A DNA stretch of 64,000 bases from Spirochaetia bacterium (lineage in GTDB: Bacteria; Spirochaetota; Spirochaetia; CADAEX01): the NCBI GenBank assembly GCA_963662795.1, contig OY759746.1, positions 704,001 through 768,000 of the forward strand, in the 5' to 3' direction. The first letter of the stretch is position 1. Each line of letters opens with the position of its first letter. The notes under the pieces were generated by a model. The model ran no database searches. It had not been told where the DNA came from and saw only the letters and a list, made by a program, of their open reading frames with translations. Shown piece by piece: positions 7,799 through 25,524 of this stretch. The position numbers and the translations under genes were made by a program.

Positions 7799-7827
7799 CT
7801 CATTCTCCTTTAAAAAAATATTTTATC

Positions 7828-7849
7828 TTAATTAAACTTAAGTTTAATT
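7828..7849. promoter_or_regulatory. Palindromic candidate operator upstream of TAXI gene
   Basis: AATTAAACTTAAGTTTAATT perfect palindrome (7830-7849); contains TTAATTAAACTTAA also found at 8736. Confidence 0.55.
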
Positions 7850-7857
7850 TTTAACTA

Positions 7858-7906
7858 TTATACTGTATTCCGGATATGAAACTTACATATCCGGAATACA
7901 GTATAA
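7858..7906. terminator. Perfect 21-bp inverted repeat downstream of HAD gene
   Basis: TTATACTGTATTCCGGATATG-7nt-CATATCCGGAATACAGTATAA. Confidence 0.65.
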
Positions 7907-7924
7907 ACTCTTAATCAGAAATAC

Positions 7925-8668
7925 TCAGACTATATAACCGCCTTCAATAAGCGCAGGCAGGTCTTTTACGCTTTCAATAACATGGGTATGCCAGTACTTT
8001 CCCCACGCCGTAACAGGCCTTGGACCGCTTAAAACACCGATTACAGCCCTGCATCCCGCATTGTAACCTTCCAGCATGTCAGCGGGCGTATCACCAATCT
8101 TAAGAACTTCACGTACATTCTGGATATTAAAATGATTCATTGCGTGAAAAATCATGAATGGTGCCGGCCTTCCCTTCCCTTCGGATACCATATCAAGGTC
8201 AACGGAAAGATCTACAAGTCCGTCCCTTACCCATCCAAGTCCATCCATAATCGCGGTTGTAACATCATTATGAAAGCCTGTATCAGTCGCGACCTTAATC
8301 CCGTTTTTATGGCACCACCTGAAAACATCAGACGCACCTTCAACCTCACGGCATTCTTTTTTATAGTGGGCAATCATTATCTCGACATATCTGTCATATA
8401 TACTTTTGGCTTCCTCATAGGTTGCCGGATCAAGACTTTTCTCAAAATCCCTGAAATCTATATTATTTCCCCGTGATCTTGAAATAAGGAACTGGTAAAG
8501 ATGTATCTTGTTTGTTCCCATATGCAGCAGTATTTCATCAGGGGTTACATTAAGTTTATATTCCTGTGCTGCTGTATAGAGACAGTCCCTGACTCCCGTA
8601 TCGTCATATACAGTTGTCCCTGACAGATCAAACATGATCATTTTAATTTCGCTTGTAGTTTGTGCCAT
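7925..8668 (-). CDS. HAD hydrolase, phosphonatase (PhnX)-like
   Basis: FDLSGTT motif I, MGTNK (position of PhnX Schiff-base Lys), TGF, GRPAPFMI, KIGDTPADMLEG. Confidence 0.85.
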   Translation of the reverse strand: MAQTTSEIKMIMFDLSGTTVYDDTGVRDCLYTAAQEYKLNVTPDEILLHMGTNKIHLYQFLISRSRGNNIDFRDFEKSLDPATYEEAKSIYDRYVEIMIAHYKKECREVEGASDVFRWCHKNGIKVATDTGFHNDVTTAIMDGLGWVRDGLVDLSVDLDMVSEGKGRPAPFMIFHAMNHFNIQNVREVLKIGDTPADMLEGYNAGCRAVIGVLSGPRPVTAWGKYWHTHVIESVKDLPALIEGGYIV

Positions 8669-8797: not shown

Positions 8798-10438
8798 TTA
8801 TTTTTCATAAACAATCCTGCCCCCAAGGATTGTTTTCTCTACCTGAATATCTCTAATTTTTTCAACCTCAGCTTCAACCGGGTCTCCTGATAAAACCGCA
8901 AGATCTGCCAGCATCCCCGGCTTTATCGCACCCCGCTGCTGTTCTAAAAACAGCGCCCGTGCATTTGAAGCGGTCCAGGCCCTGATAGCCTCTTCAGGGT
9001 TAATTCTCTGTATTTTACCATATACTATTCCGTAAGAACTTTTACGGGTTACCATAGACTGTATCCGCAGCATCGGGTCCGCAGCACAAACAGGCCAGTC
9101 CGAGTGCGCTCCAGGCTGAAGTCCGATATCAATGGCGGACCTGTATGCATGCATCATTGCAATTCTCTCTTCTCCGTAGTCCTCATATTTGTCACCATGT
9201 TCCCACGTATACTCGTGAAAAACAGGAATCACCTCAAGTTCTTTCATTCTATTTAAAATCCTTAAATCCTTTCCCACAATACTTGCATGCTCAATACGGT
9301 GTCTGTGGTCAGACCTTGGATGCCTCCCTAGTGCTTCCTCATAAGCATCGAGAAGCGCGTCAATATCCCGGTCACCGTTTGAATGTACTGCCCATTGAAA
9401 ACCCGCATTGTGCCCCTCCATAATGACGCCATTCAATTTTTTTGAAGATACTAAAGGATGCGGCATCCCGTAATAAGGAGGATTATCTCTCTTATGTGAT
9501 CCCTCGTAAGGTTATAGCCAGCAGGTTTTTCCCGCGAGTGAATTTCCCGCAAATAACTTAAGGGGCCCCACAGTAAGCATCTCGCCGCCGAATCCTCTCT
9601 TAATATTAAGAACTTTCAAAGAATTAATAATTGCTGATCCAGCCTCTTCTGTAATCCGGAATGACATGACAACACGGACAGGCAGCCGGTTCTCATTAAG
9701 CATACTCTGATAAACGCCGAACCGCCCTGGGATGCCTGAAGCATCCATGACAGTCGCAATCCCCTTTTTAAGAAAATTATTAAAGCAAAGCTCAAGCCCC
9801 TCTTTTTCTTCCTCTTCAGTTGCCTCCGGCAGGGGGATACCAGTTGTATTAAAAAGGCTATGCATGGCACTTTCAAGGCATATTCCGTTCGGGTTTCCAT
9901 CCGCGCCCCTGCAGAAACAGCCTCCATCCGGATCAGGCGTATTTTTCCCGATTGATGCTTTCCTCAGCGCCAGTGAATTAAATACCGCGGCGTGCCCGCT
10001 TGAATGGATTATCCTGACAGGGTGCTTCGACGATATTCGGTCCAGGTCCTTAGCGGCAGGATATCTTTCCAATTTTGAATCCTGGTATCCCCGTCCAGTC
10101 ACCCATTCTCCGGCAGGAACAAACTCAGCTCTTTCTGCAAGCAGCGCGATTAATTCATCGATTGACTTTATATCAAACAAATCCACAACATGCATTTTAT
10201 GATGCAAGTCGGGATAGATTGCTGCTGGATGCAGATGAGCATCAATAAACCCCGGGGTCACTGTCTTTTCATGAAGATCAAGAATAACTGTCTGCGGGCA
10301 TGCAGTGCCAAGTATACTGCTGTTCGTACCTACCTCATCTATTCTGCTTCCGCAGACAGACAATGCCTCAGCACGCGGATATAACGGGTCGCATGTAATA
10401 ATATTTGCGTTTATGATAATAAGATGATTTGGATTCAT
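8798..10438 (-). pseudogene. Amidohydrolase 3 (YtcJ-like) interrupted by one in-frame TAA at 9512-9514
   Basis: ORFs 9512-10438 (PGFIDAHLH) and 8798-9466 (HSNGD, RIEHAS, SDWP, G.LADL) are in the same frame, joined by an open linker ...KTCWL*PYEGSHKRDNPPYYGMPH... Confidence 0.85.
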
Positions 10439-10445
10439 TACATTA

Positions 10446-11366
10446 TCACTCTGCTCCTAATATTATCGGCTGAGACCAGGCTTTTTTCCCGTCAGGTGCC
10501 GTAATCTCAAGACGTATATATTTTTCATCTTTTTCAATATCAAAAAAAGCCTCTGTTATAAGCTTACCATTCTGCGCCCGCAAATGTTTTCCCCGGCAGG
10601 GAGATGACTTGAAAACCACTGAAACTGAAGGTGAAAATACGGCAGCAATTCTTTTTACTGTATGCTTACCTGAATTGGAGTCTGTCTGTTCAGATTCTTC
10701 CAGGTGAAAATCAAATATCTCAGGACCCTGGGTAGAATAAAACAAACCGGATCTTAAAGATTCAACTATTGATTCAGCTGTCAGTTCAGAGCATTTGACC
10801 ATAACCCAGCCCTGATAAAGGTCATGAAAGACATGGGAATCATCACTTGCTATACCAAAAACCGGAATATTTTTATCCAGCAGATCGTCCCAGTGTGATT
10901 CTGAAAATGACCTGCCGTTTTTATCACAGGTTGTATTAAATACTTCAATCGCAAAAAATCCATCAAGAGGCAGCATATCCAGCAATGTATGTCCTGACCA
11001 GTACGGATGGGCAAGGACAGAAATGCCTCCCTGTTTTGAGATATCTCTCATCAATTCATTCGGGTGTCTGCTTTCAAAATCCAATAAATCATGAACATTG
11101 ATTGCGACAATATGGTACGGTTTGCCGCCGTATGGATTTGGAGGGTTATATTCACAGCCGGAAATAACCAGAAATGAATTATCCGGGCAACTTGCAACAT
11201 CGCTAATCCTGTTGTGTTCTGTAACAACCAGGAAGTCGTAACCCTGTTTTTTGTAGCCTTCCCAGCATTCGGCTAAATTGCGTTTGCCGTCAGAAACAGT
11301 GCTGTGCAAATGGGTATTTCCCCTGTACCATCTGCCTGGATGAGAGAATGGATTATTGCTGTTCAT
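10446..11366 (-). CDS. PHP-domain metallohydrolase (CehA/McbA-like)
   Basis: GNTHLHSTVSDG, TEHN, AHPYWS, IEVFN, SDDSH. Confidence 0.85.
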   Translation of the reverse strand: MNSNNPFSHPGRWYRGNTHLHSTVSDGKRNLAECWEGYKKQGYDFLVVTEHNRISDVASCPDNSFLVISGCEYNPPNPYGGKPYHIVAINVHDLLDFESRHPNELMRDISKQGGISVLAHPYWSGHTLLDMLPLDGFFAIEVFNTTCDKNGRSFSESHWDDLLDKNIPVFGIASDDSHVFHDLYQGWVMVKCSELTAESIVESLRSGLFYSTQGPEIFDFHLEESEQTDSNSGKHTVKRIAAVFSPSVSVVFKSSPCRGKHLRAQNGKLITEAFFDIEKDEKYIRLEITAPDGKKAWSQPIILGAE

Positions 11367-11376
11367 CTGACGCTCC

Positions 11377-12237
11377 TTAATTTAACCCGGGAGTGCGCGC
11401 TTCAAGTTCAACAATCCTTCCTGGAGCTCTTGCCGTCTCCTGTATTGTATTAAAATGCTTTGGCTCGCCCTTGGCTTCGAAATTGAAATACCGTGAATAA
11501 CCGATTGCATAAAGCATCCTGAAGATTTCAACCCATTGTATTTCGTCTCCTTCAGCAAATGGAGGATAATGATCTATTCCATCCTTAAATCCATGCAGAT
11601 GCACCCAGCAAAGTCTATTTTTAATTATATTAAAAATCCTGGCAGGTCCTCCCGGCAGGGTCATGGGATTAATCCCTTCATCATTTCTGACATGGCCGAT
11701 ATCCAGAATCATACCTATCTGGGGATGATCAATTTCATCAAGAAAAGCAATCCTCTTTTCAACCCAGTTTTCAACAGCTTTGAAATTTTCAATTGCAATT
11801 ACAGCATCTGTTCCCTCAATATGGCGTGCAAGGTCCTCGTAGCTTTTGCGAAGAATGCTGTTCATTGTAGTCGCATGGGACCCCCACACTTTTCCGCCTA
11901 ATTCCATCATTGTATCAAGCTGACGACGGCAAAAATCCACTTCTTTTTTTCTCTTTTCTTTAGTATCTATACCGGCAAAATTGGTGGTGTGTGCATGATA
12001 GGCAACAATTTCAACTCCGCAGGATTTACATATATCTGAGATATATCTCATTGAATTGATGTCTGTCATATCATACTGTTCGCGGCTTTCTACCAGTTCA
12101 ATTCTGGTGATTCCGTTTTGCACAAGCTCCTTAAGGATACTTTCTCCAAACGGGCGGTATTTCCAGAAAAACACTGTAGACATGGACTGGCGGCTTTTTA
12201 TCTCCTCTTCGGAATAAAAACTCTTACCTTTATTCAT
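11377..12237 (-). CDS. Sugar-phosphate isomerase/epimerase family TIM-barrel protein
   Basis: IENF, LDIGH, VHLH, DHYPP..G.I.W, NFE metal-binding pattern. Confidence 0.75.
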   Translation of the reverse strand: MNKGKSFYSEEEIKSRQSMSTVFFWKYRPFGESILKELVQNGITRIELVESREQYDMTDINSMRYISDICKSCGVEIVAYHAHTTNFAGIDTKEKRKKEVDFCRRQLDTMMELGGKVWGSHATTMNSILRKSYEDLARHIEGTDAVIAIENFKAVENWVEKRIAFLDEIDHPQIGMILDIGHVRNDEGINPMTLPGGPARIFNIIKNRLCWVHLHGFKDGIDHYPPFAEGDEIQWVEIFRMLYAIGYSRYFNFEAKGEPKHFNTIQETARAPGRIVELEARTPGLN

Positions 12238-12412: not shown

Positions 12413-13115
12413 ATGAATCTGTCTAAAAACATTTTGTTCATTACTGCAGATCAATGGAGAAGTGAATGTTTAAGCTGTCTGGGGCATCCTGTAGTAAAAA
12501 CGCCGAATCTTGATTCCCTGGCAGAAGATGGAGTTCTTTTTACAAATCATTTTGTTCAGTGCATCAAGTGCGGTCCAAGCCGTGCTTCCATGCTGACCGG
12601 TATGTATCTGCAAAACCACAGGTCTGTTACAAACGGCACCCCTTTGGACAGCAGACATACAAATATTGCACTTGAATCCAGAAAAGCAGGCTATGATCCC
12701 GCACTTACCGGATATACAGATACAAGTCCTGATCCAACTAAGCATGATCCGTGTGACCCGGTTTTAAAAAGCTATCACGGGGTATTGCCTGGATTTACAT
12801 CAATTTCAGGAAAAACCATGGCAGGCGTGCCGGCAGAATGGCTCAATTGGCTCAAAGAAAAAGGATATCATATTCCAGACAAAGTTACTGCTGTTTTTGA
12901 TCCTGTTTTGGATTATCCGGGGACAGAGGATAGAGGAATGACATACGCACCTGTAAAATTTTCAAAAAACGAAAGCGATACTTACTATCTGACAGATTCT
13001 GCAATAAATTTTATCAGGGGTAATTCAGAAACGCCATGGTTTCTTCACTTAAGCTACGGACGTCCTCATCCGCCATATTTTGCTCCGGAACCATATAACA
13101 GTATGTATGATTTAA
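12413..13115 (+). pseudogene. Phosphonate monoester hydrolase / sulfatase-family protein, truncated by IS5
   Basis: ILFITADQWR, CGPSRASMLTG (formylglycine motif), NHRSV.NGTPLD, GYDPALTGYTDTSPDP match PMH-type enzymes; after ~234 aa the ORF runs into the IS5 end. Confidence 0.85.
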
Positions 13116-14321
13116 GGGCACCTCTAAAAACCCTTATTAAAACACATTTTAACCAGTAACATTGTTAAAATCATGTTGATATTATCATTTCAAACTGCAC
13201 GGCAGCAGTTTTACTGTCTGCTTAACCGTTATGCCCTGCATAACTGCAGGTATCTTATAATATTATAAGTAAGATTTGTCAGTCCAATTATTGCATTAGC
13301 CTTGATAATCCCAATTGCTCTTATCATATTACCTATTAAGGAATTCTTTATGCAGCCAAATACATGTTCAACCCTGCAGCGGACTTTTGATTTCTTCCTG
13401 TTGCTTTCCATCTGCTGCCTGCTTAAAATACTATATCTGCATCCTTTTTCATATATCCGGTTTCTTATCTTATTTTTCTGTAAAATGTTCTTAATTGTTT
13501 TTCCTGAATAAGCACTGTCTGCATATATCTCATGATGAGAATCTTTTTCTGTAATTAGGTTTTCAAAAACCTGACTGTCATGCACAGAAGCTGGTGTTAC
13601 ACAATATACTTCTCTATTATTTTTGATTTGCGGTCAATCCTGATGTGGTTTTTGTAGCCATAATGCCTCTGTCCTCCCTTTGTAACCCAGCGGGCATCTA
13701 CATCTTTTTGCCGTATTTTGTTCTCATTCCAGACATCTGGATCTTTTCCATCTTTTATTTCTTCGTTTTCTTCTTTTGAGTTTCTCTGTTTGGGAGCTTA
13801 TACAAAGCTGGCATCTACTATCTTTCCGCTATGCGCTATTATTCCTTCATTAAGAAGATATGATCTGAATTGCTCAAAAAGTAGTTCTATCTTTCCGGAT
13901 TTTGTAAGGGTTTCTCTAAAAAGCCATATTGTTTTTTCATCCGGTACCTGGTCCTGCAGATTAAGTCCAAGAAATCTCATAAATGAGAGGCGGTCCATTA
14001 TCTGAAATTGTATCTGTGCATCTGATAAATTATAAAGGCGCTGCAGTATAAATATCTTAAACATCATAACATAATCTAAGGCCGGCCTTCCTCCCGGGCC
14101 TTTTGCCTGCTTTTCAAACACCCGGTTTAATGTGTGGCGAAAACTTTCCCACTTAATCATTTTATTTAAAGGTATTAATGGATCTCCCTGTTTTTCAAGA
14201 TCCTTAAGTCTTAATTCGTCATCAAAAAAACCGCACTGTTATCTCATTTTTCATCTCCCATAAAGAGAGTATAACATTTATTGCAATTTATGAAAATTCC
14301 CTCTAGTTTTTAAAGGTGTCC
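13116..14321 (-). mobile_element. IS5-family insertion sequence with inactivated transposase
   Basis: IRs GGGCACCTCTAAAAAC (13116) / GTTTTTAAAGGTGTCC (to 14321), 14/16 match; fragments GGRP, LYNLSD, DRLSFMRFLGL, VPDEKTIW, IVDAS, YADSAY, RVEHVFG; early stop (MR*) and at least two frameshifts. Confidence 0.92.
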
Positions 14322-14605
14322 TTCAATTTTTAAATCCAGTTTATCGTTATTAATTTCGCTTTCTGATTAAGGTTCAAGCAACCAGTAAGAATAGCCAATG
14401 CGGGATACTTTAAAGACTTTGGCCATTTTTGAGATGCATTGTTTCAAAGATTGATTTTTTATAAATATAAATATTATTTCTGTCATTTTGAGAAAATAAC
14501 CAGCGTTTTTTTAATATTTCATACTCTTCCTGGATATTTGCCAATTGTTTTTTTAAATTAAGTATTTCTTCATCACGTGGATTCCCTTTTCCCGGAAATG
14601 ATTTT
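14322..14605 (-). mobile_element. IS3-family remnant (end of orfA, start of orfB)
   Basis: FPGKGNPRDEEILNLKKQL...EILKK then, in another frame, MAKVFKVSRIGYSYW...*...NDKLDLKI; cut at IS5 end. Confidence 0.75.
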
Positions 14606-14913
14606 CTCATGTTTTTTATACTCAAAGATTCACCTACTAAGTAGATATCTCCTTTGTCTATTATATTGGGGGTAGACCACATGCATTATTTTGCCCCTTT
14701 TGGAAGAAAAAGCTGAATAAAATCTTTTTAAAGCATTTTCCTTTTAGATTTTTAATAATTAGTGTTTAACTGTGAAGGAAAAAAGTAATTTCTCTCCCGG
14801 GGTGGAAGGGAAAAACGGATAGATATACCTGAGGCTAAGTACAGGCTGCCCTGATTACAATTTTATTTACCCAATATTTTTAAAGCCTATACTTAAACTC
14901 ACCATGAACCGCT

Positions 14914-14973
14914 AAAAAAATCCCGCTGAAATTATTCTGCCTCTTGCAGGCTGAAAAATCCCGGCGGGGGTTT
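14914..14973 (-). terminator. Long hairpin plus U7 tract after paralog A (copy 1)
   Basis: Minus strand CCCGCCGGGATT...CTGC-AAGAG-GCAG...AATTTCAGCGGG followed by ATTTTTTT. Confidence 0.6.
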
Positions 14974-14991
14974 ATTTGCAACTAATTACTC

Positions 14992-15693
14992 TTATAATTC
15001 TATTTTAGCAACATTGGGTTTGACCTGTTCCTGTAAATAGTCTCCCCTCACAAGCAGAACATCAGGGATTGACTCGCTGAGTTTCTTCGTCATGTCAAGA
15101 AATTTACCCCGGATATTATTCGCCTGCAGTGCTACATCCTTTACTTCGTTCGATGGCAGCTCTTTCTGCGGCTCTATCAGCGTGGCTATCCTGTCAAGCA
15201 CCGACAGCACTACCCTGTTGAGCATATCCATCTGGTCTTTTGTTTTATCAAGGTGTTTTCCAAGATTATTCACATCGCTTACCGTAAGCGGATATATCCT
15301 GTACCCCTCTTCCGGCATCTCATAACAGGCAGTCAGAAGGCCATATATTATTACAAGCGCTTTCGGATATATCTCTCCTGGTTTCCACTTCGTCAGCATC
15401 CGGAAACATTCCTTTATCATAAAGGTATTGAACTGTATTGTTCCAAGGAATTTACTCGGCTCCCTCTCCCCTACAAGTGTTTCTATTACCCACGGATTTC
15501 CTGCTTCAATCAGCCTGAAATATATGGGATAGTTGTCAGGATTCAATCCAACTTTATGTACCAGGAAATGCGCCAGCGCTACTGCGGCAAAGGCGCTGTA
15601 CCCTTCCTTGCTGTCTATTATTTCTTTTATATACCCTAATGCAAGTTCGTCTATCTCTTTCTCAGACCACAGCGGCCATTCTACACCAGACAT
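14992..15693 (-). CDS. Uncharacterised family protein, paralog A (copy 1)
   Basis: GGAGG RBS before MSGVEW; shares NY, WVI, IYP, GY.IY, DVNNLGKHL, ANNIR, IP.VLL motifs with B, C, D. Confidence 0.85.
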   Translation of the reverse strand: MSGVEWPLWSEKEIDELALGYIKEIIDSKEGYSAFAAVALAHFLVHKVGLNPDNYPIYFRLIEAGNPWVIETLVGEREPSKFLGTIQFNTFMIKECFRMLTKWKPGEIYPKALVIIYGLLTACYEMPEEGYRIYPLTVSDVNNLGKHLDKTKDQMDMLNRVVLSVLDRIATLIEPQKELPSNEVKDVALQANNIRGKFLDMTKKLSESIPDVLLVRGDYLQEQVKPNVAKIEL

Positions 15694-15771
15694 TGCTACC
15701 TCCACTCTGAAGTTAAGGCCGCTTTACTTCTTTCCAAAATATCGCGGCCCTATTTCACATTATCTTCTACT

Positions 15772-16491
15772 CTATTCTTCTGCAGGTTTCTCAACTTCAG
15801 CAAGAGGAATAAGTTTCCTCGGCTGTACATCCTTGTCAAGATTAGGTTCAAGTCTCAGCTGGACTTCCGGTATGACGTCAACAAGATGTTTCTTGGTATC
15901 GAAGAAATTGTTTCTTATATTATGCGCATGTACTGCAAGGTCTTCCATATCTTCATCCACATTCTGTCCTTCAAGCGAAGACAGCTTATCCAGTATGTCA
16001 AGGATACTCCGGTTAAGCAGGTCATCCTGTCCTTTTTCCTCATTCAGGTGTTTTCCCAATGAGTTAACATCTGCTACTGATGGCGGATAGATTTTATATC
16101 CATCAAGCGGCGAATTATAGGTCGCCTGAAATACTCCAAGTATTATTCCAAGGGTCTTCGGATATATCTCTGCCTTCCGGTATTTTGTCAATATTGTAAA
16201 GCATGTCGATACTATGAAATAGTTCGGCTGTATTGAACTCATGAACAAAAACGGATCCCGCGATCCAAGCAGGGCATCTATTACATTGTGGTTTCTTACT
16301 GTCAGTATATTCAGAAATACCGGATAGTTTCCATTTGTTATTCCAGTGAAGTTCAGATAGCTTGCGTATGTCGTCGCTGATTCTACTGCTTCAATTGTCC
16401 GGCAGCCCAAAATACCTTTAAGCATATTATATTCTATCTGCTGAACGTCACTATCGGTCCAGTCCTGCTTTTTTTCAAATAGCTCCTTCAT
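15772..16491 (-). CDS. Uncharacterised family protein, paralog B (copy 1)
   Basis: 239 aa, AAGGAG RBS, family motifs (DVNSLGKHL, AHNIR). Confidence 0.87.
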   Translation of the reverse strand: MKELFEKKQDWTDSDVQQIEYNMLKGILGCRTIEAVESATTYASYLNFTGITNGNYPVFLNILTVRNHNVIDALLGSRDPFLFMSSIQPNYFIVSTCFTILTKYRKAEIYPKTLGIILGVFQATYNSPLDGYKIYPPSVADVNSLGKHLNEEKGQDDLLNRSILDILDKLSSLEGQNVDEDMEDLAVHAHNIRNNFFDTKKHLVDVIPEVQLRLEPNLDKDVQPRKLIPLAEVEKPAEE

Positions 16492-16514
16492 AAAATAATT
16501 CTCCTTTCCTTATT

Positions 16515-17213
16515 TTAATCAACGAAGAGTTGTCTTGGTGCAGTTTCCTTGGCTACATAATCAGATTTTACAAGGAGAACCTGCGGTATAATATCTTCCA
16601 TTTTCTTCCGTTTATCAAAGTAGAATGTCCTGATATTATTTGCCTGGCGGGCCATTTGTTCTTTTTCCGGACTGCTCGATGTTCCCGCAAGTGAGCCTAA
16701 CCGATCCAGTATGTCCAGAATACACCTGTTATTCAGATCATCCTGTCCGAGTTCCTTATTCAGATGCTTTCCAAGATTATTTACATCATTTATTGACACT
16801 GAATATATCTTGTACCCGTCCTTCGGGGATGCATATGCTGCCTGCAGTATTCCAAGCACTACTGACAGTGTTACAGGGTATATACCTCCGGGATGCCAGT
16901 TCGTCAGAAGCTTGAAGCCTGTATAGCCCAGATAGCTGTTAGGCTGTATCGGACTCAGCATTAAAAAAGGATCCTTTTTCCCTACCATAGTATCAATCAC
17001 CCAATGATTTTCTACTTCCAGCAGTTTCAGAAAGAGGGGATAATTATCATTACTTAATCCCGATAAACTTAAAAATCTTGCAAAACTTATTGAACCTTCT
17101 ACAGCCTCTTCCGTCCGGGACCCCAGCATATTCTGCACTATCCCCAGCTGTACCTTCATTATAGTCTCTTTCGACCATGTCCTTTCGATTACCCGTTCGC
17201 TCTGCTTGTCCAT
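16515..17213 (-). CDS. Uncharacterised family protein, paralog C (copy 1)
   Basis: GGAGG RBS before MDKQSE; family motifs. Confidence 0.87.
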   Translation of the reverse strand: MDKQSERVIERTWSKETIMKVQLGIVQNMLGSRTEEAVEGSISFARFLSLSGLSNDNYPLFLKLLEVENHWVIDTMVGKKDPFLMLSPIQPNSYLGYTGFKLLTNWHPGGIYPVTLSVVLGILQAAYASPKDGYKIYSVSINDVNNLGKHLNKELGQDDLNNRCILDILDRLGSLAGTSSSPEKEQMARQANNIRTFYFDKRKKMEDIIPQVLLVKSDYVAKETAPRQLFVD

Positions 17214-17305
17214 TACCACCTCCACATTGCGACAAACCAAATATTAAAAAATTATATAAACCCAACTACTATAATAATAATAAACAGAAATCCCTTTATG
17301 TCTTT

Positions 17306-18226
17306 TCACTTCCTTTTATTATGCATCGCCATAAAACTTTGCCCAAAAGCTGAATAATCGTCATCGTTGCTTATAGATTTTGTATCTTCTGCTGATTTGA
17401 ACATCGATCTAAAATATTTATCCACATAATTTCTTCGGTTAATTATATTACTGACAACTTTTTTTGAAATATTATCAGCATCCTTTGAATAGGATGAAAA
17501 GGCTGCTTTTGCCAGCACCAGACAAAACTCAGGAGTAATTTCAGCAAATGCGCGCAAGCGGTCCTCAAATGTGCAGATTGATACACCTTCAAAGTGTTCA
17601 GGCCTCAAAAGCGTAAGAAATCGGGTTTTTTCGGTCCGGAGCCAGCCGAACTTATTTGGCAAACCGGTAATTTTCATTGCTTCAGAGAATAAATCTGCTT
17701 TGTCATAATCTATTGCTGCTACAAAAGGGGTATTCTTTGCATTGGTAATTACAAGATAATTATTTGGATTCCTGTCTTCATCGAAAAATATCCAGCGGTT
17801 TATTAAATCTGCCCTTAGTATATTTATAAATGGTGATTCAAGATAATTGTAAGAGCTTATCTGTACAGCACGCTGCACTACCTTTGTAATACGGTATTTT
17901 TTACCATTAATAAGTACTGCACTTGTTGGCGCAGCAAGGGTCCCTGTTTCATGATCAAGAAGATAAGCCAGCATGCACGCCCGGTGGTAAAGCATCTCAT
18001 TATCGGATGCAACCGGTTTTACTATCCAAAGGTCTCCGCTATCGTCTTTAGCAGCAAGATAGCTTTTAACCTGGGCATTAAACGGAACATCATTCTGGGA
18101 TTCAACAAGGGTAAGTTGCATGGAATCAAGATGTTTCAATACTTCCTTTGCAGGTTTATCAAGATAAAAATATTTTATAAGCTCCTTATCTCCCAAAGCA
18201 TCTGCCAGTTTTTCACGTTCACCCAT
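17306..18226 (-). CDS. HipA/PI3-PI4-kinase-like atypical kinase
   Basis: WIVKP (ATP Lys), DEDRNPNNYL catalytic loop (D-R-x-x-x-N), AIDYD Mg-binding Asp; start MGERE with GGAGG RBS overlaps phosphatase stop. Confidence 0.72.
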   Translation of the reverse strand: MGEREKLADALGDKELIKYFYLDKPAKEVLKHLDSMQLTLVESQNDVPFNAQVKSYLAAKDDSGDLWIVKPVASDNEMLYHRACMLAYLLDHETGTLAAPTSAVLINGKKYRITKVVQRAVQISSYNYLESPFINILRADLINRWIFFDEDRNPNNYLVITNAKNTPFVAAIDYDKADLFSEAMKITGLPNKFGWLRTEKTRFLTLLRPEHFEGVSICTFEDRLRAFAEITPEFCLVLAKAAFSSYSKDADNISKKVVSNIINRRNYVDKYFRSMFKSAEDTKSISNDDDYSAFGQSFMAMHNKRK

Positions 18227-19181
18227 AATAATATACCTCCGGTTTTTCAATAACAGCAGTTTTCACCAGCATCTTGTTTCCGATAAAAGTAATGTAGGGA
18301 GCAGCGCTACCATACCCGGAATAAAGAATATGGTGATTGCGAATTCCTATGACGTTTTGCCAGATACCAATTTTATTACCATCATTCCATAATGGATTAT
18401 GCCCCACAATAAAATGAGTATCCTCGGGCATATCAAGCATATCAAGAGCAAGCCGAAGGTCTTTTTCTCCATATTCCTTTAGACTCGGATTGCCATGGAA
18501 TTCATTTACCCTATTCCATAGGAGCTGGTGGAGTTTTTCAGGATAATCCTTGATGTTGATCAATTCATCCTTTACAACACCACCATGGGGTGGGCCTGCA
18601 TGCGTTATAACAAATTCCTTACCGATAATAAATACAGGCAGGCTATTGAAAAATTTTTCTACTGCTGTAGTAAACTCGGGGCCTTTTTCGGCCATCAATG
18701 TCTTTCTGAGTTCCAGGCCCTGTGAAATACCGCTCTTTCGAAGTCTTTCGTCAAAGGTATCATGGTTACCCCTGATATAGTAAATACGTCCGGGATATTG
18801 CAGAATAAGACGAAGAACATCATCAAGGATATCTACAGAAGTCTGCATATCTTTCATGTGACCTGTACGGTCATCATGCAGCGCATCTCCCAAAAGGATG
18901 CAGGAAGCTTTACCTGATTCAATATCCGCACGATTTGTCTCATGTCCGAGTATCAGAGCAAGATTCTCCCGATTTGCGTGAAGATCACCTATAATGATCG
19001 GCCGTATGTCATTGGGAAAGAGAATTAACCCGCCAGGTAAATTATCCCTGTCTGACAAACGACCGGGTAATGTACCCAATATTTTCATTGCTTTTTCTAC
19101 AAGTTTTACACCATCTATATCTTTTTTTGAAACATCCACCCCGGAGATGGATTCAGAGCCAGTTTTTAATTTCCGTGACAT
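18219..19181 (-). CDS. Calcineurin-like metallophosphoesterase (PPP-type phosphatase)
   Basis: GDLHA, GDALHD, RGNHD, THAG, LLWN, VGHN motifs. Confidence 0.88.
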   Translation of the reverse strand: MSRKLKTGSESISGVDVSKKDIDGVKLVEKAMKILGTLPGRLSDRDNLPGGLILFPNDIRPIIIGDLHANRENLALILGHETNRADIESGKASCILLGDALHDDRTGHMKDMQTSVDILDDVLRLILQYPGRIYYIRGNHDTFDERLRKSGISQGLELRKTLMAEKGPEFTTAVEKFFNSLPVFIIGKEFVITHAGPPHGGVVKDELINIKDYPEKLHQLLWNRVNEFHGNPSLKEYGEKDLRLALDMLDMPEDTHFIVGHNPLWNDGNKIGIWQNVIGIRNHHILYSGYGSAAPYITFIGNKMLVKTAVIEKPEVYYYG

Positions 19182-19239
19182 TTATTCTCCTAATTTATGC
19201 TATCATGATGAGAACTACACGGTAGGCAACTTATTTCTC

Positions 19240-20268
19240 TTATTTCGGAGATTTAGTTGTTCCCGTTTTTGAACTTTTACTCTTGGCCGTTGCATTTTTT
19301 AGTTTCCTGACTGTTTTACGGGGCTTTAACTCCGGTTTTTTTTCGGAATTTACCTCTAAAACACTTTCATTTACTATTTTATCAGGTTTACCAGATTCAT
19401 CAGCAGTTTTATTCACAACCTTTATCTCCGGCACTGCATCAGTTTCTTTTACAAATCGGCCATAAACATCACGTTTACGCTGTCTCCGTTTAGAAACAAG
19501 ATCAACATAATCATCCTCAGGATGCACACCCATTCTATCCTGCAAGCGGACAAGTAATGGTTCCGGTATGGCATCGACAAGCTCTCTTGTATGATCAAAA
19601 TATGCATAACGGACATTAAATGCGTGTTTTGACAGGACGTTTTTATCCTGTTCACCATAATAATCTCCCACATGAGCAATTCTGTCAAGAATTTCAAGAA
19701 TAAGTTTGTTAAGAGGATGTTCCTGAGGTTCATCTTTAATCAGAAACTTACCAAGGGCATGGATATCCATTATTGAAAGTTTACGAATTCGGTAACCATC
19801 ATCCGGATCAAAGTAGGCATTCTGAATTATTCCAAGAACAGCTTCAAGAGCCGGTGAATAAATTTCATCAGGATGGCGTGAATACAGCATTTCAAATGCC
19901 GCATCCAGCAAGTCAATTCCGGGACGTATGGTAGAAAAAAGAAGACGTGCGGTACGATCATGCAATAATTCATCTATAACCCAGGGATTATTGGTCATTA
20001 TCATACGGAGGAAAAGCCAGTAATTATCGTTGCTCAGACCTGCATAATTCAGATATCTGGCAAATGCTACTGCACTCTCCACCTGCGGTTGAGTTGTACA
20101 TGCAAATAATGCTTCACGAAGATTATGCGCATGATCACGGATTAGCCGTTTATCGTTGTCTATGAGTAAAAATCCTGTCTTAGCTGGCATTCCTGCATAC
20201 CCCCTTTTAGTATCGGAAGAAAGGGAGGCTCTATTTACTTCCATAAAAGAATTATTCTCCAAAATCAT
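19240..20268 (-). CDS. Uncharacterised family protein, paralog D, with Lys-rich C-terminal tail
   Basis: VESAVAFARYL, GLSNDNY, NPWVID, EIY, DGYRI, DIHALGKFL, LN..IL.ILDR, AFNVR, IPEPLLVR align with A/B/C. Confidence 0.87.
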   Translation of the reverse strand: MILENNSFMEVNRASLSSDTKRGYAGMPAKTGFLLIDNDKRLIRDHAHNLREALFACTTQPQVESAVAFARYLNYAGLSNDNYWLFLRMIMTNNPWVIDELLHDRTARLLFSTIRPGIDLLDAAFEMLYSRHPDEIYSPALEAVLGIIQNAYFDPDDGYRIRKLSIMDIHALGKFLIKDEPQEHPLNKLILEILDRIAHVGDYYGEQDKNVLSKHAFNVRYAYFDHTRELVDAIPEPLLVRLQDRMGVHPEDDYVDLVSKRRQRKRDVYGRFVKETDAVPEIKVVNKTADESGKPDKIVNESVLEVNSEKKPELKPRKTVRKLKNATAKSKSSKTGTTKSPK

Positions 20269-20319
20269 GGTAAGTATTCTCCTTTATCAAAAATGCCTTT
20301 AATTATCCGGCAATTTACC

Positions 20320-21081
20320 CTATTTTTCTCTTTGCTGGTTGTCCACTACATAATGTCCGCGGCCCAGTATTTTGGCTTTTCCCAGGGCGTCCCTCGCACG
20401 TGCCAATATAACATCGCTTTTCTGAGGAGAACCAGCCGCGACTCCGACTGAGCCGCCTATCCATACCACGCCGGTAGGTAATTCAACCGGTCTTTGCAGC
20501 ATTTCAGCCAGTTTTCCGGCCTGTTCCGCAGCAATTTCATTTGAATACTTCGGAACAACATTTGCGATAGCGGCAAACTCATCACCCGAAGTTCTGGCTG
20601 CGATTCCCTCAGGCCCGGCACAGGACGCAACCCGTTTTGCAACTTCTATTAAAACCGCATCTGCTATTTGTTTTCCATGCACCCGTTCAACCTGCTCAAA
20701 CCCGGCAAGGTCGGCAGATAAAACAACAATCCCTTTACCATCAGCGGCAAGCCTTGGACTTTTTTCCTGAAACCAAGCATTAAGGCCATTCTCGTTCGCG
20801 AGTCCGGTAAGCAGGTCAATTCTGTCATCCGGTATCTCCTTATCCCCAATCGGCGCTGTACTTTCCTGATTGACTGTAAAAACATCAAAAGTTTTTGCCT
20901 TTGCCTGCCATATAAAATAAATCAGACAGAAAATACCCAGCAGCAGGGCTGTCAGCAGGGATATTGCAAGACCTCCCGTCAGTGCAGAGAAACTTCCCAG
21001 CAAACTTGATACTGTAACCAGAATAGCTATCCATATCTGTGTGGATTTCAGTTTTTGACCTTTTATTTTTTTTGTTTCCAT
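20320..21081 (-). CDS. Membrane-anchored GGDEF-domain protein (SGDEF variant)
   Basis: Two N-terminal TM helices, DLLTGLAN, ARTSGDEF, GSVG, KILGRG. Confidence 0.85.
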   Translation of the reverse strand: METKKIKGQKLKSTQIWIAILVTVSSLLGSFSALTGGLAISLLTALLLGIFCLIYFIWQAKAKTFDVFTVNQESTAPIGDKEIPDDRIDLLTGLANENGLNAWFQEKSPRLAADGKGIVVLSADLAGFEQVERVHGKQIADAVLIEVAKRVASCAGPEGIAARTSGDEFAAIANVVPKYSNEIAAEQAGKLAEMLQRPVELPTGVVWIGGSVGVAAGSPQKSDVILARARDALGKAKILGRGHYVVDNQQREK

Positions 21082-21153
21082 AAAATTAGTATCGACAAAA
21101 TTTTAACGGGTTTCAAATTTTATTAAGTTAGGCAGGGTTTGGAGATTACTGTT

Positions 21154-23094
21154 TTACCTTTTCGATATAGTTGATAACGCATGCCATGGCTCAATCCGTT
21201 TATGCTCATAAAAAACAAAGACACAAACCGGTGCGTTATGAATCCCGCCCGCTATCTGGGTTAAAAGCTGATGCAGATCCTTCTGAATGCTTTCCCCGCC
21301 CCGTATAACAAGCACAAGAGGTTTCTTTTTTCGGCTGAAAGCCAATAGTGAAGAGACTATGCTTTTTTGGCATTTTTTGGTCCTGAGTATATGTTCTTTT
21401 ATTATTTCTGCATCTCTTCCGTAAAGGACACGACCGACAGGATAAGATTTAAAAACACCAAATGTATCCTGCTTTGCGACAAGATGCGCCAGATAAAGCA
21501 AGGCATTTCTGGTTTCACCCGGCAATGCCTTGGCCAGGCCCTGCCGCAGCATTATTGCAAAATCAATGATTCCGGCTTTACCGTAACGCGCACAGGACCC
21601 AAGATTAACATAAAGACTTTCATTTTTCAGTGTTTCAAGTGAATTAAATAAATCGGCAGTTAAAACCGCTGACGGCGGTTCCTGAATATATCTGAAACAC
21701 CCTTTTCTCTTTTGAGCTCTTTTTATTGAAACCTCTATAATCCCCCGCACATCCTGAAATCTGACATGATGATAATTCCAGCTAATGTTTTTTTTCAGAG
21801 ATTCACCAGATACTTGCACCTGATTTATTGCCAGGAAAGACACTTTAGCCTTGTCCGGAATATTTGGGCCGGTATCGTTATTTTGCGGTGCTTTATCAAT
21901 AGTTATGTTTTTATGGGAAATCGGATTACCCGCAGTTTTGAATACTGTTTTTTCCTGCAAGATATCAGTATGCAGAATATCTTCACCCACGGATATTTTA
22001 ATCTTTTCCGGTAAACGGACAAAGATATTATTATTCATCCCCTTTTCACCAGTTATTGCATGTATTCCATTAGCTATGTAATCATCAATTGACCAATGCA
22101 ATTCATTTTCATCTACCGTATTCAATTCCTGTTTTTCAAGCCGCTCGACAGAGGCCTGATCATTGAAAGTCTTTACAGGATACAGCACATCAATACCGCT
22201 TTCTCTGTCTTTTACAGGTTCTTTCAGTGATTTAAAATAATTGACAGAGTCGAATAATGATAATTCAGAAGATTCAATAAAAAACCGTAAATCATTTATC
22301 ATGTCAATGCAGGTACCATACCGGCGTGTAATGTCTGGCAGCAATGCACGGAGGGTTATCCGCACCAGCCTTTCAGGAACACCGCGGCGCAATAAGGAAT
22401 TGGTTGTAAATATGAGCGAAGCTGTATCTGATTTTAAAGATTGTAAAGAATCGGGAAAAGGTACTCTGCCTGTAAAAAATCTTACCAGATGGATACCCAG
22501 TGAATAAACATCGCTTCCTTCACATAATTCATTTCTTTGTTTATATTCCGGTGCAATATAAGCATGATTTTCTGACAATATTTTTTCTTTTTCCGGTAAT
22601 ACAGAGAGCATTGAAAACAAACCAGGTTTCTGAATCTTTACTGAATAATTTGATTCACTTATTTTTTTAACAAGAACGTTCTCGGCATTTAAATTTCCAT
22701 AGATTATCCCCTGATCATGAAATGACGCAAGGCCACGTGCAAGGGAAATTATAATTTTGCATATTTGTTCAAGTTTCCAGTCTTTTTTTTTCTCAAGAAC
22801 TGATAATAGATTTGTCTCGTCATTGTATTCAGAAGATATAAAAAGCTGTTTATTAAAAAAATCCATTTCAATAAAATCAGCTATATACTGACCACTTACC
22901 CTATAACATTTTATTGCTTCTGAGCGAAGTTCATCAAAAGAACCAGCAGAGTTGTCATTGTTTTTTACAAACCGTAACAGAAATTTTGTTGCTGAAAAAA
23001 TAGCTGTAGCTTTCCAGTGTTCAGTAAATGTATCTTCACCAATCCTGTTCTGCATTATATAACATTCATTTACGACCATTTGTTCCTGTAGCAT
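21154..23094 (-). CDS. Ser/Thr kinase-like pseudokinase with degenerate C-terminal AAA-like domain
   Basis: YIAPE, SDVYSLG, TGRVPF retained; catalytic HRD reads YGN, no DFG, VAIK Lys absent; likely start MLQEQ with GGTGAG SD (alternative start 23109). Confidence 0.78.
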   Translation of the reverse strand: MLQEQMVVNECYIMQNRIGEDTFTEHWKATAIFSATKFLLRFVKNNDNSAGSFDELRSEAIKCYRVSGQYIADFIEMDFFNKQLFISSEYNDETNLLSVLEKKKDWKLEQICKIIISLARGLASFHDQGIIYGNLNAENVLVKKISESNYSVKIQKPGLFSMLSVLPEKEKILSENHAYIAPEYKQRNELCEGSDVYSLGIHLVRFFTGRVPFPDSLQSLKSDTASLIFTTNSLLRRGVPERLVRITLRALLPDITRRYGTCIDMINDLRFFIESSELSLFDSVNYFKSLKEPVKDRESGIDVLYPVKTFNDQASVERLEKQELNTVDENELHWSIDDYIANGIHAITGEKGMNNNIFVRLPEKIKISVGEDILHTDILQEKTVFKTAGNPISHKNITIDKAPQNNDTGPNIPDKAKVSFLAINQVQVSGESLKKNISWNYHHVRFQDVRGIIEVSIKRAQKRKGCFRYIQEPPSAVLTADLFNSLETLKNESLYVNLGSCARYGKAGIIDFAIMLRQGLAKALPGETRNALLYLAHLVAKQDTFGVFKSYPVGRVLYGRDAEIIKEHILRTKKCQKSIVSSLLAFSRKKKPLVLVIRGGESIQKDLHQLLTQIAGGIHNAPVCVFVFYEHKRIEPWHALSTISKR

Positions 23095-23117
23095 ATCTAA
23101 ACTCACCATGAACCGCT

Positions 23118-23178
23118 AAAAAAAATCCCGCTGAAATTATTCTGCCTCTTGCAGGCTGAAAAATCCCGGCGGGGGTTT
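23118..23178 (-). terminator. Long hairpin plus U8 tract after paralog A (copy 2)
   Basis: Same hairpin as 14914-14973, with one extra U. Confidence 0.6.
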
Positions 23179-23196
23179 ATTTGCAACTAATTACTC

Positions 23197-23898
23197 TTAT
23201 AATTCTATTTTAGCAACATTGGGTTTGACCTGTTCCTGTAAATAGTCTCCCCTCACAAGCAGAACATCAGGGATTGACTCGCTGAGTTTCTTCGTCATGT
23301 CAAGAAATTTACCCCGGATATTATTCGCCTGCAGTGCTACATCCTTTACTTCGTTCGATGGCAGCTCTTTCTGCGGCTCTATCAGCGTGGCTATCCTGTC
23401 AAGCACCGACAGCACTACCCTGTTGAGCATATCCATCTGGTCTTTTGTTTTATCAAGGTGTTTTCCAAGATTATTCACATCGCTTACCGTAAGCGGATAT
23501 ATCCTGTACCCCTCTTCCGGCATCTCATAACAGGCAGTCAGAAGGCCATATATTATTACAAGCGCTTTCGGATATATCTCTCCTGGTTTCCACTTCGTCA
23601 GCATCCGGAAACATTCCTTTATCATAAAGGTATTGAACTGTATTGTTCCAAGGAATTTACTCGGCTCCCTCTCCCCTACAAGTGTTTCTATTACCCACGG
23701 ATTTCCTGCTTCAATCAGCCTGAAATATATGGGATAGTTGTCAGGATTCAATCCAACTTTATGTACCAGGAAATGCGCCAGCGCTACTGCGGCAAAGGCG
23801 CTGTACCCTTCCTTGCTGTCTATTATTTCTTTTATATACCCTAATGCAAGTTCGTCTATCTCTTTCTCAGACCACAGCGGCCATTCTACACCAGACAT
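23197..23898 (-). CDS. Uncharacterised family protein, paralog A (copy 2)
   Basis: Protein identical to copy 1. Confidence 0.85.
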   Translation of the reverse strand: MSGVEWPLWSEKEIDELALGYIKEIIDSKEGYSAFAAVALAHFLVHKVGLNPDNYPIYFRLIEAGNPWVIETLVGEREPSKFLGTIQFNTFMIKECFRMLTKWKPGEIYPKALVIIYGLLTACYEMPEEGYRIYPLTVSDVNNLGKHLDKTKDQMDMLNRVVLSVLDRIATLIEPQKELPSNEVKDVALQANNIRGKFLDMTKKLSESIPDVLLVRGDYLQEQVKPNVAKIEL

Positions 23899-23976
23899 TG
23901 CTACCTCCACTCTGAAGTTAAGGCCGCTTTACTTCTTTCCAAAATATCGCGGCCCTATTTCACATTATCTTCTACT

Positions 23977-24696
23977 CTATTCTTCTGCAGGTTTCTCAAC
24001 TTCAGCAAGAGGAATAAGTTTCCTCGGCTGTACATCCTTGTCAAGATTAGGTTCAAGTCTCAGCTGGACTTCCGGTATGACGTCAACAAGATGTTTCTTG
24101 GTATCGAAGAAATTGTTTCTTATATTGTGCGCATGTACTGCAAGGTCTTCCATATCTTCATCCACATTCTGTCCTTCAAGCGAAGACAGCTTATCCAGTA
24201 TATCAAGGATACTCCGGTTAAGCAGGTCATCCTGTCCTTTTTCCTCATTCAGGTGTTTTCCCAATGAGTTAACATCTGCTACTGATGGCGGATAGATTTT
24301 ATATCCATCAAGCGGCGAATTATAGGTCGCCTGAAATACTCCAAGTATTATTCCAAGGGTCTTCGGATATATCTCTGCCTTCCGGTATTTTGTCAATATT
24401 GTAAAGCATGTCGATACTATGAAATAGTTCGGCTGTATTGAACTCATGAACAAAAACGGATCCCGCGATCCAAGCAGGGCATCTATTACATTGTGGTTTC
24501 TTACTGTCAGTATATTCAGAAATACCGGATAGTTTCCATTTGTTATTCCAGTGAAGTTCAGATAGCTTGCGTATGTCGTCGCTGATTCTACTGCTTCAAT
24601 TGTCCGGCAGCCCAAAATACCTTTAAGCATATTATATTCTATCTGCTGAACGTCACTATCGGTCCAGTCCTGCTTTTTTTCAAATAGCTCCTTCAT
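23977..24696 (-). CDS. Uncharacterised family protein, paralog B (copy 2)
   Basis: Protein identical to copy 1. Confidence 0.87.
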   Translation of the reverse strand: MKELFEKKQDWTDSDVQQIEYNMLKGILGCRTIEAVESATTYASYLNFTGITNGNYPVFLNILTVRNHNVIDALLGSRDPFLFMSSIQPNYFIVSTCFTILTKYRKAEIYPKTLGIILGVFQATYNSPLDGYKIYPPSVADVNSLGKHLNEEKGQDDLLNRSILDILDKLSSLEGQNVDEDMEDLAVHAHNIRNNFFDTKKHLVDVIPEVQLRLEPNLDKDVQPRKLIPLAEVEKPAEE

Positions 24697-24719
24697 AAAA
24701 TAATTCTCCTTTCCTTATT

Positions 24720-25418
24720 TTAATCAACGAAGAGTTGTCTTGGTGCAGTTTCCTTGGCTACATAATCAGATTTTACAAGGAGAACCTGCGGTATAATATC
24801 TTCCATTTTCTTCCGTTTATCAAAGTAGAATGTCCTGATATTATTTGCTTGGCGGGCCATTTGTTCTTTTTCCGGACTGCTCGATGTTCCCGCAAGTGAG
24901 CCTAACCGATCCAGTATGTCCAGAATACACCTGTTATTCAGATCATCCTGTCCGAGTTCCTTATTCAGATGCTTTCCAAGATTATTTACATCATTTATTG
25001 ACACTGAATATATCTTGTACCCGTCCTTCGGGGATGCATATGCTGCCTGCAGTATTCCAAGCACTACTGACAGTGTTACAGGGTATATACCTCCGGGATG
25101 CCAGTTCGTCAGAAGCTTGAAGCCTGTATAGCCCAGATAGCTGTTAGGCTGTATCGGACTCAGCATTAAAAAAGGATCCTTTTTCCCTACCATAGTATCA
25201 ATCACCCAATGATTTTCTACTTCCAGCAGTTTCAGAAAGAGGGGATAATTATCATTACTTAATCCCGATAAACTTAAAAATCTTGCAAAACTTATTGAAC
25301 CTTCTACAGCCTCTTCCGTCCGGGACCCCAGCATATTCTGCACTATCCCCAGCTGTACCTTCATTATAGTCTCTTTCGACCATGTCCTTTCGATTACCCG
25401 TTCGCTCTGCTTGTCCAT
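24720..25418 (-). CDS. Uncharacterised family protein, paralog C (copy 2)
   Basis: Protein identical to copy 1. Confidence 0.87.
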   Translation of the reverse strand: MDKQSERVIERTWSKETIMKVQLGIVQNMLGSRTEEAVEGSISFARFLSLSGLSNDNYPLFLKLLEVENHWVIDTMVGKKDPFLMLSPIQPNSYLGYTGFKLLTNWHPGGIYPVTLSVVLGILQAAYASPKDGYKIYSVSINDVNNLGKHLNKELGQDDLNNRCILDILDRLGSLAGTSSSPEKEQMARQANNIRTFYFDKRKKMEDIIPQVLLVKSDYVAKETAPRQLFVD

Positions 25419-25486
25419 TACCACCTCCACATTGCGACAAACCAAATATTAAAAAATTATATAAACCCAACTACTATAATAATAGT

Positions 25487-25524
25487 AACACGTATATTAT
25501 AAAACACGTATATTAAAGTGTCCA
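25487..25524 (-). promoter_or_regulatory. Sigma70-type promoter for C-B-A overlapped by a 13-bp direct repeat
   Basis: TGGACA (25519-25524), 17 bp, TATAAT (25496-25501); AACACGTATATTA at 25487 and 25503. Confidence 0.7.

Follow-up and report, generated by a model that had tools for sequence, protein, structure and literature searches.

Why would a bacterium keep two almost identical copies of a three-gene cassette, one at either end of a set of signalling genes? The question is raised by a 64,000-nucleotide stretch of contig OY759746.1 (positions 704,001 to 768,000 of the forward strand; assembly GCA_963662795.1, Spirochaetia bacterium), here called the window. In it, genes A, B and C flank on both sides a core of five genes: a pseudokinase gene (PK), a GGDEF-domain gene (G), a fourth A/B/C paralog (D), a metallophosphoesterase gene (P) and an atypical kinase-like gene (K). 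Comparison with related genomes makes it very likely that this arrangement reflects long-lasting concerted evolution after one ancient duplication in a spirochaete clade.

The twin cassette

The repeat was detected by self-BLAST and pairwise alignment of the window. Positions 14894-17283 align with 23098-25488 over 2391 columns at 99.79 % identity (E=0), which bears out the near-perfect 2.39-kb direct repeat described in the initial annotation, and the A-B-C pair is the single long repeat in the 64 kb. The three substitutions listed there were found again at 15922/24127, 15997/24202 and 16644/24849, as was the A7/A8 indel near 14914, and a fourth mismatch lies at 17280/25485, slightly beyond the end point then given. 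As had been read, all coding differences are synonymous (His CAT/CAC and Asp GAC/GAT in B, Gln CAG/CAA in A) and the proteins are identical. Taken alone, three synonymous changes out of three are weak evidence (p=0.011 for all changes, p=0.035 for transitions only). All genes lie on the minus strand and are given here in the order of transcription, which runs from an ankyrin gene through the promoter, A-B-C, PK, G, D, P, K and the second A-B-C to fragments of IS5-type insertion sequences (IS).

25496..25524, minus strand: sigma70-like promoter of the upstream copy, just outside the repeat (11/12 match)
23098..25484, minus strand: A-B-C cassette, upstream (right) copy, running into the pseudokinase gene (repeat alignment)
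24720..25418, minus strand: gene A, copy 2 (repeat alignment)
23977..24696, minus strand: gene B, copy 2 (repeat alignment)
23197..23910, minus strand: gene C, copy 2 (repeat alignment)
23118..23173, minus strand (~14914-14968 in the other copy): hairpin and U-tract 3' of C, bearing the A7/A8 difference (z -1.8, -2.1)
21154..23109, minus strand: PK, Ser/Thr pseudokinase with altered catalytic motifs and a weak AAA_16-like C-terminal part (PF00069)
20320..21081, minus strand: G, GGDEF-domain protein with hydrophobic N-terminus and degenerate motif SGDEF (PF00990, E=3.5e-21)
19240..20268, minus strand: D, single-copy fourth A/B/C paralog with low-complexity C-terminal tail (35 % identical to A)
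18219..19181, minus strand: P, calcineurin-like metallophosphoesterase (PF00149, E=7e-10)
17306..18250, minus strand: K, atypical kinase-like protein with invariant K, DEDRNPNN and IDYDK motifs (motifs and Atlas lead; no HMM match)
14894..17279, minus strand: A-B-C cassette, downstream (left) copy, 3' of the kinase gene (repeat alignment)
16515..17213, minus strand: gene A, copy 1, 232 amino acids (aa) from the ATG shared by orthologs, helical alpha-solenoid model (pLDDT 96)
15772..16491, minus strand: gene B, copy 1, 239 aa, predicted partner of A (paralog comparison, complex model)
14992..15705, minus strand: gene C, copy 1, 237 aa, alpha-solenoid family paralog (no Pfam/PADLOC/NCBIfam match)

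Orthologs point to ATG 23094 as the start of PK, so that only its ribosome-binding site would lie inside the repeat. Among the relatives described below, a sigma70 match of at least 10/12 stands before A in 43 of 71 copies versus before B in 1 of 71, and it precedes both A copies in three genomes that share the window layout (L004, L005 and L007). The A-tract 3' of C had been called part of a terminator; a hairpin does precede it, which makes this plausible, but its z-scores are modest (-1.8/-2.1) and it is absent from the terminator-scan list. The A7/A8 difference itself may be real or a homopolymer sequencing error.

The layout in related genomes

A GTDB scan matched 158 stretches, 80 of which gave the 76 loci to which the L-numbers refer. 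When the window proteins are mapped on these loci, the usual module order is D-P-K-A-B-C-PK, in single copy. The window layout, ABC-PK-G-D-P-K-ABC, recurs in 3 of the 76, namely L004 and L005, which are chromosome-scale records, and L007. Their repeats measure 2317, 2390 and 2276 bp, with 99.7, 98.9 and 99.96 % identity and a spacing of 8091-8261 bp, and their edges are 24-86 bp upstream of A and 4-50 bp downstream of C. L071 is an 8260-bp loop contig (A..K-A) with A at both ends, which overlap by 141 bp, and L003 carries the permuted core with a single ABC. K is directly followed by A in 37 of the 76 loci and C by PK in 34, and both junctions occur in 25 single-copy loci; K homologs are present in 59 and P homologs in 58. 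The window, L004 and L005 have different outer neighbours; outer flanks are common to L005/L007 and to L003/L005.

Other loci show further repeat structures. L072, a distant Spirochaetaceae-labelled locus, contains an independent 2171-bp duplication of three family genes (9231-11401 and 16028-18198). Its repeat begins 2 bp upstream of the first ATG and stops at the end of the last gene's conserved domain, which leaves the two copies with different tails. L067 (1-2597) is an A-B-C-A loop contig and L001 and L025 are ABC-only contigs; together with L071 and L048 they either loop into A (141-bp terminal overlap) or consist of the cassette only, as collapsed repeats or tandem arrays would give.

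A probable old duplication with repeated homogenisation

Within genomes the copies hardly diverge. The counts of synonymous and non-synonymous changes are 3/0 in the window, 6/1 in L004, 18/0 in L005 and 0/0 in L007, and the proportion of synonymous differences (pS) is 0-0.037. Between genomes pS reaches 0.44-0.93 and its non-synonymous counterpart (pN) 0.03-0.09. The layout thus predates synonymous saturation between genomes, and the earlier description of the duplication as slightly aged does not hold. What does hold is the proposal of a duplication under purifying selection and homogenisation: pooled over the window, L004 and L005 there are 27 synonymous changes and 1 non-synonymous change, and gene conversion is the likely agent.

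On the tree of P and K, which lie outside the repeat, the window, L003, L004, L005, L007 and L071 form one clade (SH-aLRT 100), whose sister group is seven loci with the ancestral order. Each ABC copy, by comparison, pairs with the other copy in its own genome, and a topology that unites the upstream copies in a clade is rejected (p-AU 1e-99). The ABC protein tree recovers the clade with a support of 95 and places the ABC-only contigs L001 and L025 within it. The 65-bp promoter flanks of L005 and L007 are the most telling: identity across genomes is 0.85 between the two downstream flanks and 0.66 between the two upstream flanks, versus 0.58-0.60 within a genome, whereas ABC itself is 0.99-1.00 identical within a genome versus 0.84 across. 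Since the flanks group by position and the coding sequence by genome, the duplication is very probably old and the homogenisation subsequent to it.

The history that these data make very likely is the following. The D-P-K-A-B-C-PK module underwent a single duplication, in the common ancestor of a clade of environmental Treponematales-like spirochaetes, after which loss of the redundant outer parts left A-B-C on either side of one core, PK-G-D-P-K, in circularly permuted order. The probable route, since the inner junctions are both ancestral, is a tandem duplication of the whole module followed by outer loss. In each genome the A-B-C copies were then homogenised time and again, by non-reciprocal conversion and possibly also by amplification-contraction, with purifying selection removing amino-acid changes. 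The core was presumably retained because looping it out would delete the sole kinase, phosphatase and D. Loop-out or amplification of the core between the repeats is possible; the L071 loop fits such an event, but an assembler could make the same contig from a repeat of this kind.

A number of observations weigh against this history. Both copies are complete in just 4 genomes, the window included, and conversion tracts cluster only weakly in L005 (p=0.02-0.05). In the NODE-style contigs L007 and L072 the near-100 % identity of the copies may come from an assembler copying one consensus. The P+K tree is a quick tree of 59 rows, from which 18 of the 76 loci were omitted because they have no near-full P or K, and in the ABC DNA tree, which is flagged for unequal composition, the window falls outside the clade and next to the AT-rich L018. 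L003, single-copy inside the clade, either lost one copy or descends from the state in which the duplication arose. Finally, the downstream copy in the window is preceded by a weak sigma70-like match only (9/12, at 17277-17304) and has 99 bp of 3' spacer in common with the upstream copy, the PK ribosome-binding site among them. A secondary re-duplication in the window lineage is possible on these two grounds.

A codon imprint on the duplicated copies

Synonymous third-position GC, expressed as ABC minus core, is raised by 0.11-0.24 in the five duplicated genomes, versus a median of 0.02 and a maximum of 0.10 in 50 other loci and 0.00 in L003. The excess over the flanking genes is smaller (0.04 in the window, 0.08 in L004, 0.10 in L005) because the core is AT-rich. 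In the five duplicated genomes all 18 codon families show a rise of G- or C-ending codons, versus 10 of 18 in nine single-copy relatives. Such a shift in the copies would need a long residence in the duplicated state.

The change is not the same for the two bases. At fourfold sites of the window ABC genes G stands at 0.35 and C at 0.11, against 0.20 and 0.20 in the flanks, and fourfold C falls in the window, L005, L007 and L071 (4 of the 5 duplicated genomes) as well as in L072, with a slight rise in L004 alone. Measured as ABC minus core, the G/C skew of the five duplicated genomes ranks 1-5 among 38 same-strand loci (0.22-0.44 vs at most 0.10). L072, the independent duplication, has the highest skew of 75 loci, and its single-copy paralog on the same strand has no skew. 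Plain symmetric GC-biased conversion is insufficient here, as it explains the GC rise but not the asymmetry of more G and less C.

The asymmetry could stem from a strand-dependent identity of mismatches combined with unequal repair; the alternative is selection on a very abundant mRNA. C:C mismatches are poorly repaired. A C/G or other transversion difference between copies would be mispaired as purine:purine or as pyrimidine:pyrimidine according to the invading strand, and strand-specific heteroduplex formation would enrich the coding strand in purines, in addition to a GC bias at transitions. For tuf, strand-dependent mismatch identity with unequal repair is documented in the available text of PMC5485169. 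That strand-asymmetric biased gene conversion acts in this manner on the genes of a major phosphorylation-regulated alpha-solenoid assembly of free-living spirochaetes is a speculative proposal, and we hold it to be rather doubtful. The five skewed genomes are relatives, and the absolute skew is near zero in L004 (0.01) and L071, which weighs against an imprint. An absolute G skew was also expected in the ABC-only and loop contigs and failed to appear (L001 0.02, L025 -0.02, L067 -0.20, L048 -0.16); these contigs are without a core to normalise the skew against. Moreover, none of the 43 flanking open reading frames (ORFs) scanned is a ribosomal or translation-factor gene, so that they give no calibration of the codons preferred under high expression.

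Known cases of concerted evolution

Long-lasting concerted evolution of protein genes is rare in prokaryotes. According to the main text of Wang & Chen 2018 (PMC6053082) it concerns 26 genes, mostly those of complex subunits in high demand, and the long-lasting examples include tuf, amoCAB/hao, psbA/D and flagellin. The present locus resembles the cases described there in that its paralogs are closer within than between genomes, grouping by genome, with shared synteny: the same inner neighbours are found in the window, L004, L005 and L007, along with position-specific promoter flanks and shared outer flanks. It likewise involves a multi-gene cassette of probable complex subunits, to which a rationale of dosage and balance would apply. 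It differs in that the family is unannotated and the direct repeats, 8.2 kb apart, bracket what would be their own regulators. Four genomes have both copies in full and L071 is a loop, just short of the five species used as a threshold by these authors. The age is read here from synonymous saturation; the definition in PMC6053082 asks for a duration of hundreds of millions of years. The tables of that paper list no spirochaete gene, and the string "spiroch" occurs 0 times in its main text.

In Salmonella, tuf conversion is limited by the gene bounds (Paulsson et al. 2017, PMC5485169, available text), and the repeat edges in our relatives similarly hug the coding sequence; the mechanism was measured for tufA/tufB and is inferred here. 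The available text of that paper describes no strand-asymmetric codon imprint of the kind seen in the cassettes. GC-biased gene conversion in bacteria has been treated for allelic recombination by Lassalle et al. 2015 (PMC4450053), whose main text uses "paralog" and "duplicat" 0 times. The rise of G/C-ending codons in the recombining copies, in all 18 families, is like the effect reported in that text, but the fall of fourfold C in 4 of 5 duplicated genomes while G rises is unlike a symmetric bias. A literature search found no description of the module or of a strand-asymmetric conversion bias between paralogs; the available text of PMC12236494 has nothing on the module, and the supplements of PMC6053082 and PMC12236494 could bear on this.

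The A/B/C/D family

A, B, C and D are paralogous, with B, C and D 35-46 % identical to A. Protein A has 776 homologs among 994 candidates; in the best 120, those with a name are all spirochaete or unassigned "bacterium" records, at 71-94 % identity. One record, L012, is titled Treponema denticola; it is metagenome-assembled and falls among uncultured lineages in the trees, and is not evidence that this pathogen has the module. Sediminispirochaeta is a cultured carrier, putatively with a single copy. Searches of Pfam, PADLOC, NCBIfam, PDB sequences and Atlas gave no match for A, B, C or D, and no Pfam family is matched by more than 3 of 150 family members. No named relatives were retrieved with a short member of 187 aa. 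Longer fused forms were not found in the 607-2000 aa range searched, which is weak evidence.

With a 150-row family alignment, A is modelled as a helical solenoid with a predicted local distance difference test score (pLDDT) of 96.1 and a predicted template modelling score (pTM) of 0.90; from 32 close orthologs alone the pLDDT is 54. Foldseek returns no match to this model at E<=0.001. Structural matches by VIA-align are mostly generic solenoids of the armadillo/HEAT type, all-helical and stacked like A, but the best (Z 8.1, root-mean-square deviation 5.5, 157 aligned residues) is at the helical-repeat background and A has no PDB sequence relative. A/B/C/D is, on the models and searches at hand, an unannotated alpha-solenoid family whose records are spirochaete-labelled or unlabelled.

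The predicted A-B complex scores 0.81 versus 0.00 for the best of 3 controls, above a mark reached by 116 of 157 solved pairs and 2 of 215 mismatched pairs. Its runs share at least 88 % of contacts, the partner pLDDT is at least 88, and the modelled interface is pseudo-symmetric, formed by N-terminal helices and C-terminal tails. Both input alignments contain family members, and the score may, to the detriment of a specific A-B pairing, reflect self-dimerisation of the family. The model thus supports dimerisation within the family, not A-B specificity.

The regulators and a proposed function

In K, a Lys, the motif D-R-N-x-x-N and the motif D-x-D are invariant or nearly so in 46 orthologs. We take these to be the catalytic Lys, the catalytic-loop Asp/Asn and the Mg-binding Asp of a kinase of the PI3/4-kinase/HipA type. 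The Atlas lead for K is PI3/4-kinase PF00454, at rank 28; K has no Pfam, NCBIfam, PADLOC or PDB sequence match, and 0 of the 46 orthologs match a kinase Pfam family. The adjacent phosphatase gene adds to the resemblance, but the module has no HipB-like helix-turn-helix (HTH) partner, and K is without a profile match. The catalytic motifs of PK are altered, the motif of G is degenerate, and in a scan of 23 PK orthologs 3 gave an AAA_16 match below the cut-off. Some loci have the GGDEF gene on the opposite strand after PK, others before D (L002, L006, L009, L012, L015 vs L027, L028); in the window's clade it is on the same strand, inside the core. Its placement suggests further permutations and an inversion of the module.

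A, B and C would build an abundant alpha-solenoid assembly, as subunits whose N-terminal helices join them head-to-head. On this assembly K and P would act as a phosphorylation switch, with PK and the degenerate GGDEF protein as adaptors; T34, S87 and S140 of A, which are conserved, would be candidate target residues. Two promoter-bearing copies would raise the dose of structural subunits relative to the regulators, and homogenisation would keep the subunits matched to one another, an argument also made for tuf, amoCAB and psbA. Such an extra dose of structural subunits over the kinase/phosphatase regulators is the most likely purpose of the twin cassette. That a phosphorylation-regulated, abundant solenoid assembly lies behind the duplication and gains dosage from it is a reasonable proposal, although we stop a little short of calling it probable; a classical high-expression codon index, for one, is positive in just 38 of 54 loci, which counts against it. 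History and function taken together, the account given here remains the best explanation and a likely one.

Competing explanations

The near-identity of the copies in each genome would also be expected if they had arisen by repeated, independent, recent duplications, or if the 8.2-kb unit were continually amplified and contracted as a copy-number switch, no copy being old. The closed loop of the 8.1-kb unit in L071, the A-B-C-A loop of L067, the pseudokinase ribosome-binding site at the 3' end of the window's downstream copy and the independent duplication in L072 all agree with it. Yet the carriers form one clade, the codon shift requires long residence in the duplicated state, and the promoter flanks of L005 and L007 group by position, not by genome; amplification-contraction could contribute to homogenisation but leaves these flanks unexplained, and we consider such a recent origin improbable. 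The initial annotation had also considered Campbell-type integration of a mobile 8.2-kb circle at a resident A-B-C. A direct repeat around cargo is indeed the expected product, the outer neighbours are not the same in the window, L004 and L005, and IS5-type pieces lie ~730 bp from the left copy. But the K-A and C-PK junctions are ancestral, the cargo consists of the genes that ordinarily accompany ABC on the chromosomes of relatives, L005/L007 and L003/L005 have outer flanks in common, and the core-gene tree agrees with the ABC protein tree. No transposase or integrase, as a composite transposon or integrative element would carry, lies in the repeats or cargo (0 of 8 distinct ORFs with such a Pfam match, as first noted), and protein A is unmatched in 72,556 plasmid and 50,697 phage records, although these presumably hold few environmental spirochaete elements. 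Integration of a circle is largely refuted and would be a great surprise. An assembly chimera of two strains with different gene orders is slightly less probable still. The layout is known here from assemblies alone, A7/A8 is a typical sequencing error and just three single-nucleotide differences were listed between the copies; but independent assemblies have the same layout, two of them chromosome-scale with synonymous differences of their own, and the window ABC carries the codon shift confined to duplicated genomes. A chimera is thus very unlikely.

A different reading of the function would make the module an anti-phage or toxin-antitoxin system, in which a kinase toxin is held in check by the phosphatase and by helical antitoxins supplied in excess by the flanking copies. 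Kinase-phosphatase-pseudokinase sets resemble kinase-based defence modules, and K resembles HipA/PI4K-type kinases by motif. Against this, A, B, C, D, K and P have no match in PADLOC 2.0.0, where PK alone matches, and then only generic kinase models; A is very highly conserved (72-94 % across orders) with apparently vertical inheritance, unlike most defence genes; and the sampled neighbours of the module are mostly metabolic and signalling genes. A defence role is therefore unlikely, if less so than the alternatives above.

Other features of the window and of the relatives

Next to the left copy, a truncated sulfatase gene is followed by two IS5-type transposase fragments (12413-14160), and these confirmed IS pieces (13229-14160) are of the IS5 type. 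The IS3 remnant first proposed here is not borne out, 14410-14682 having no HTH or transposase Pfam match and no plasmid match; the AT-rich segment 14160-14890 may hold a further IS remnant, an unconfirmed candidate. Elsewhere in the window, two adjoining minus-strand ORFs at 8798-10438 resemble what are presumably the halves of one amidohydrolase, with no NCBIfam match at 1e-10; the split could be due to a frameshift or a sequencing error. A putative cluster for phosphonate use occupies 3489-8668 (HpnZ-type dehydrogenase, TRAP transporter, phosphonatase-like hydrolase), and an IS4-family transposase adjoins an AT-rich two-component pair at 59941-63998. A window scan gave no tRNA and no Rfam match. 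Among the relatives, a gene of ~600 aa that has no Pfam family stands beside the module in 14 Spirochaetales-type loci, including L046 (17137-19534), where a short 189-aa family paralog adjoins it.

What the locus means

The process at work is a known one, long-lasting concerted evolution, acting here on an undescribed protein family, and the locus is older and more informative than it first appeared. A direct repeat that has so long resisted loop-out implies that the core is probably under strong selection, and the upkeep of the copies at near-identity suggests an abundant protein complex. With single-copy close relatives at hand, the locus provides a built-in control for studying the bias of intragenomic conversion in bacteria, and if strand-asymmetric conversion proved true, the duplicated genomes and their single-copy sisters would amount to a natural experiment on such bias. 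First handles on the family are its confident fold, the predicted dimer interface and the kinase/phosphatase pair linked to it. Concerted evolution on genes so far unannotated points to an important unknown machine in environmental spirochaetes.

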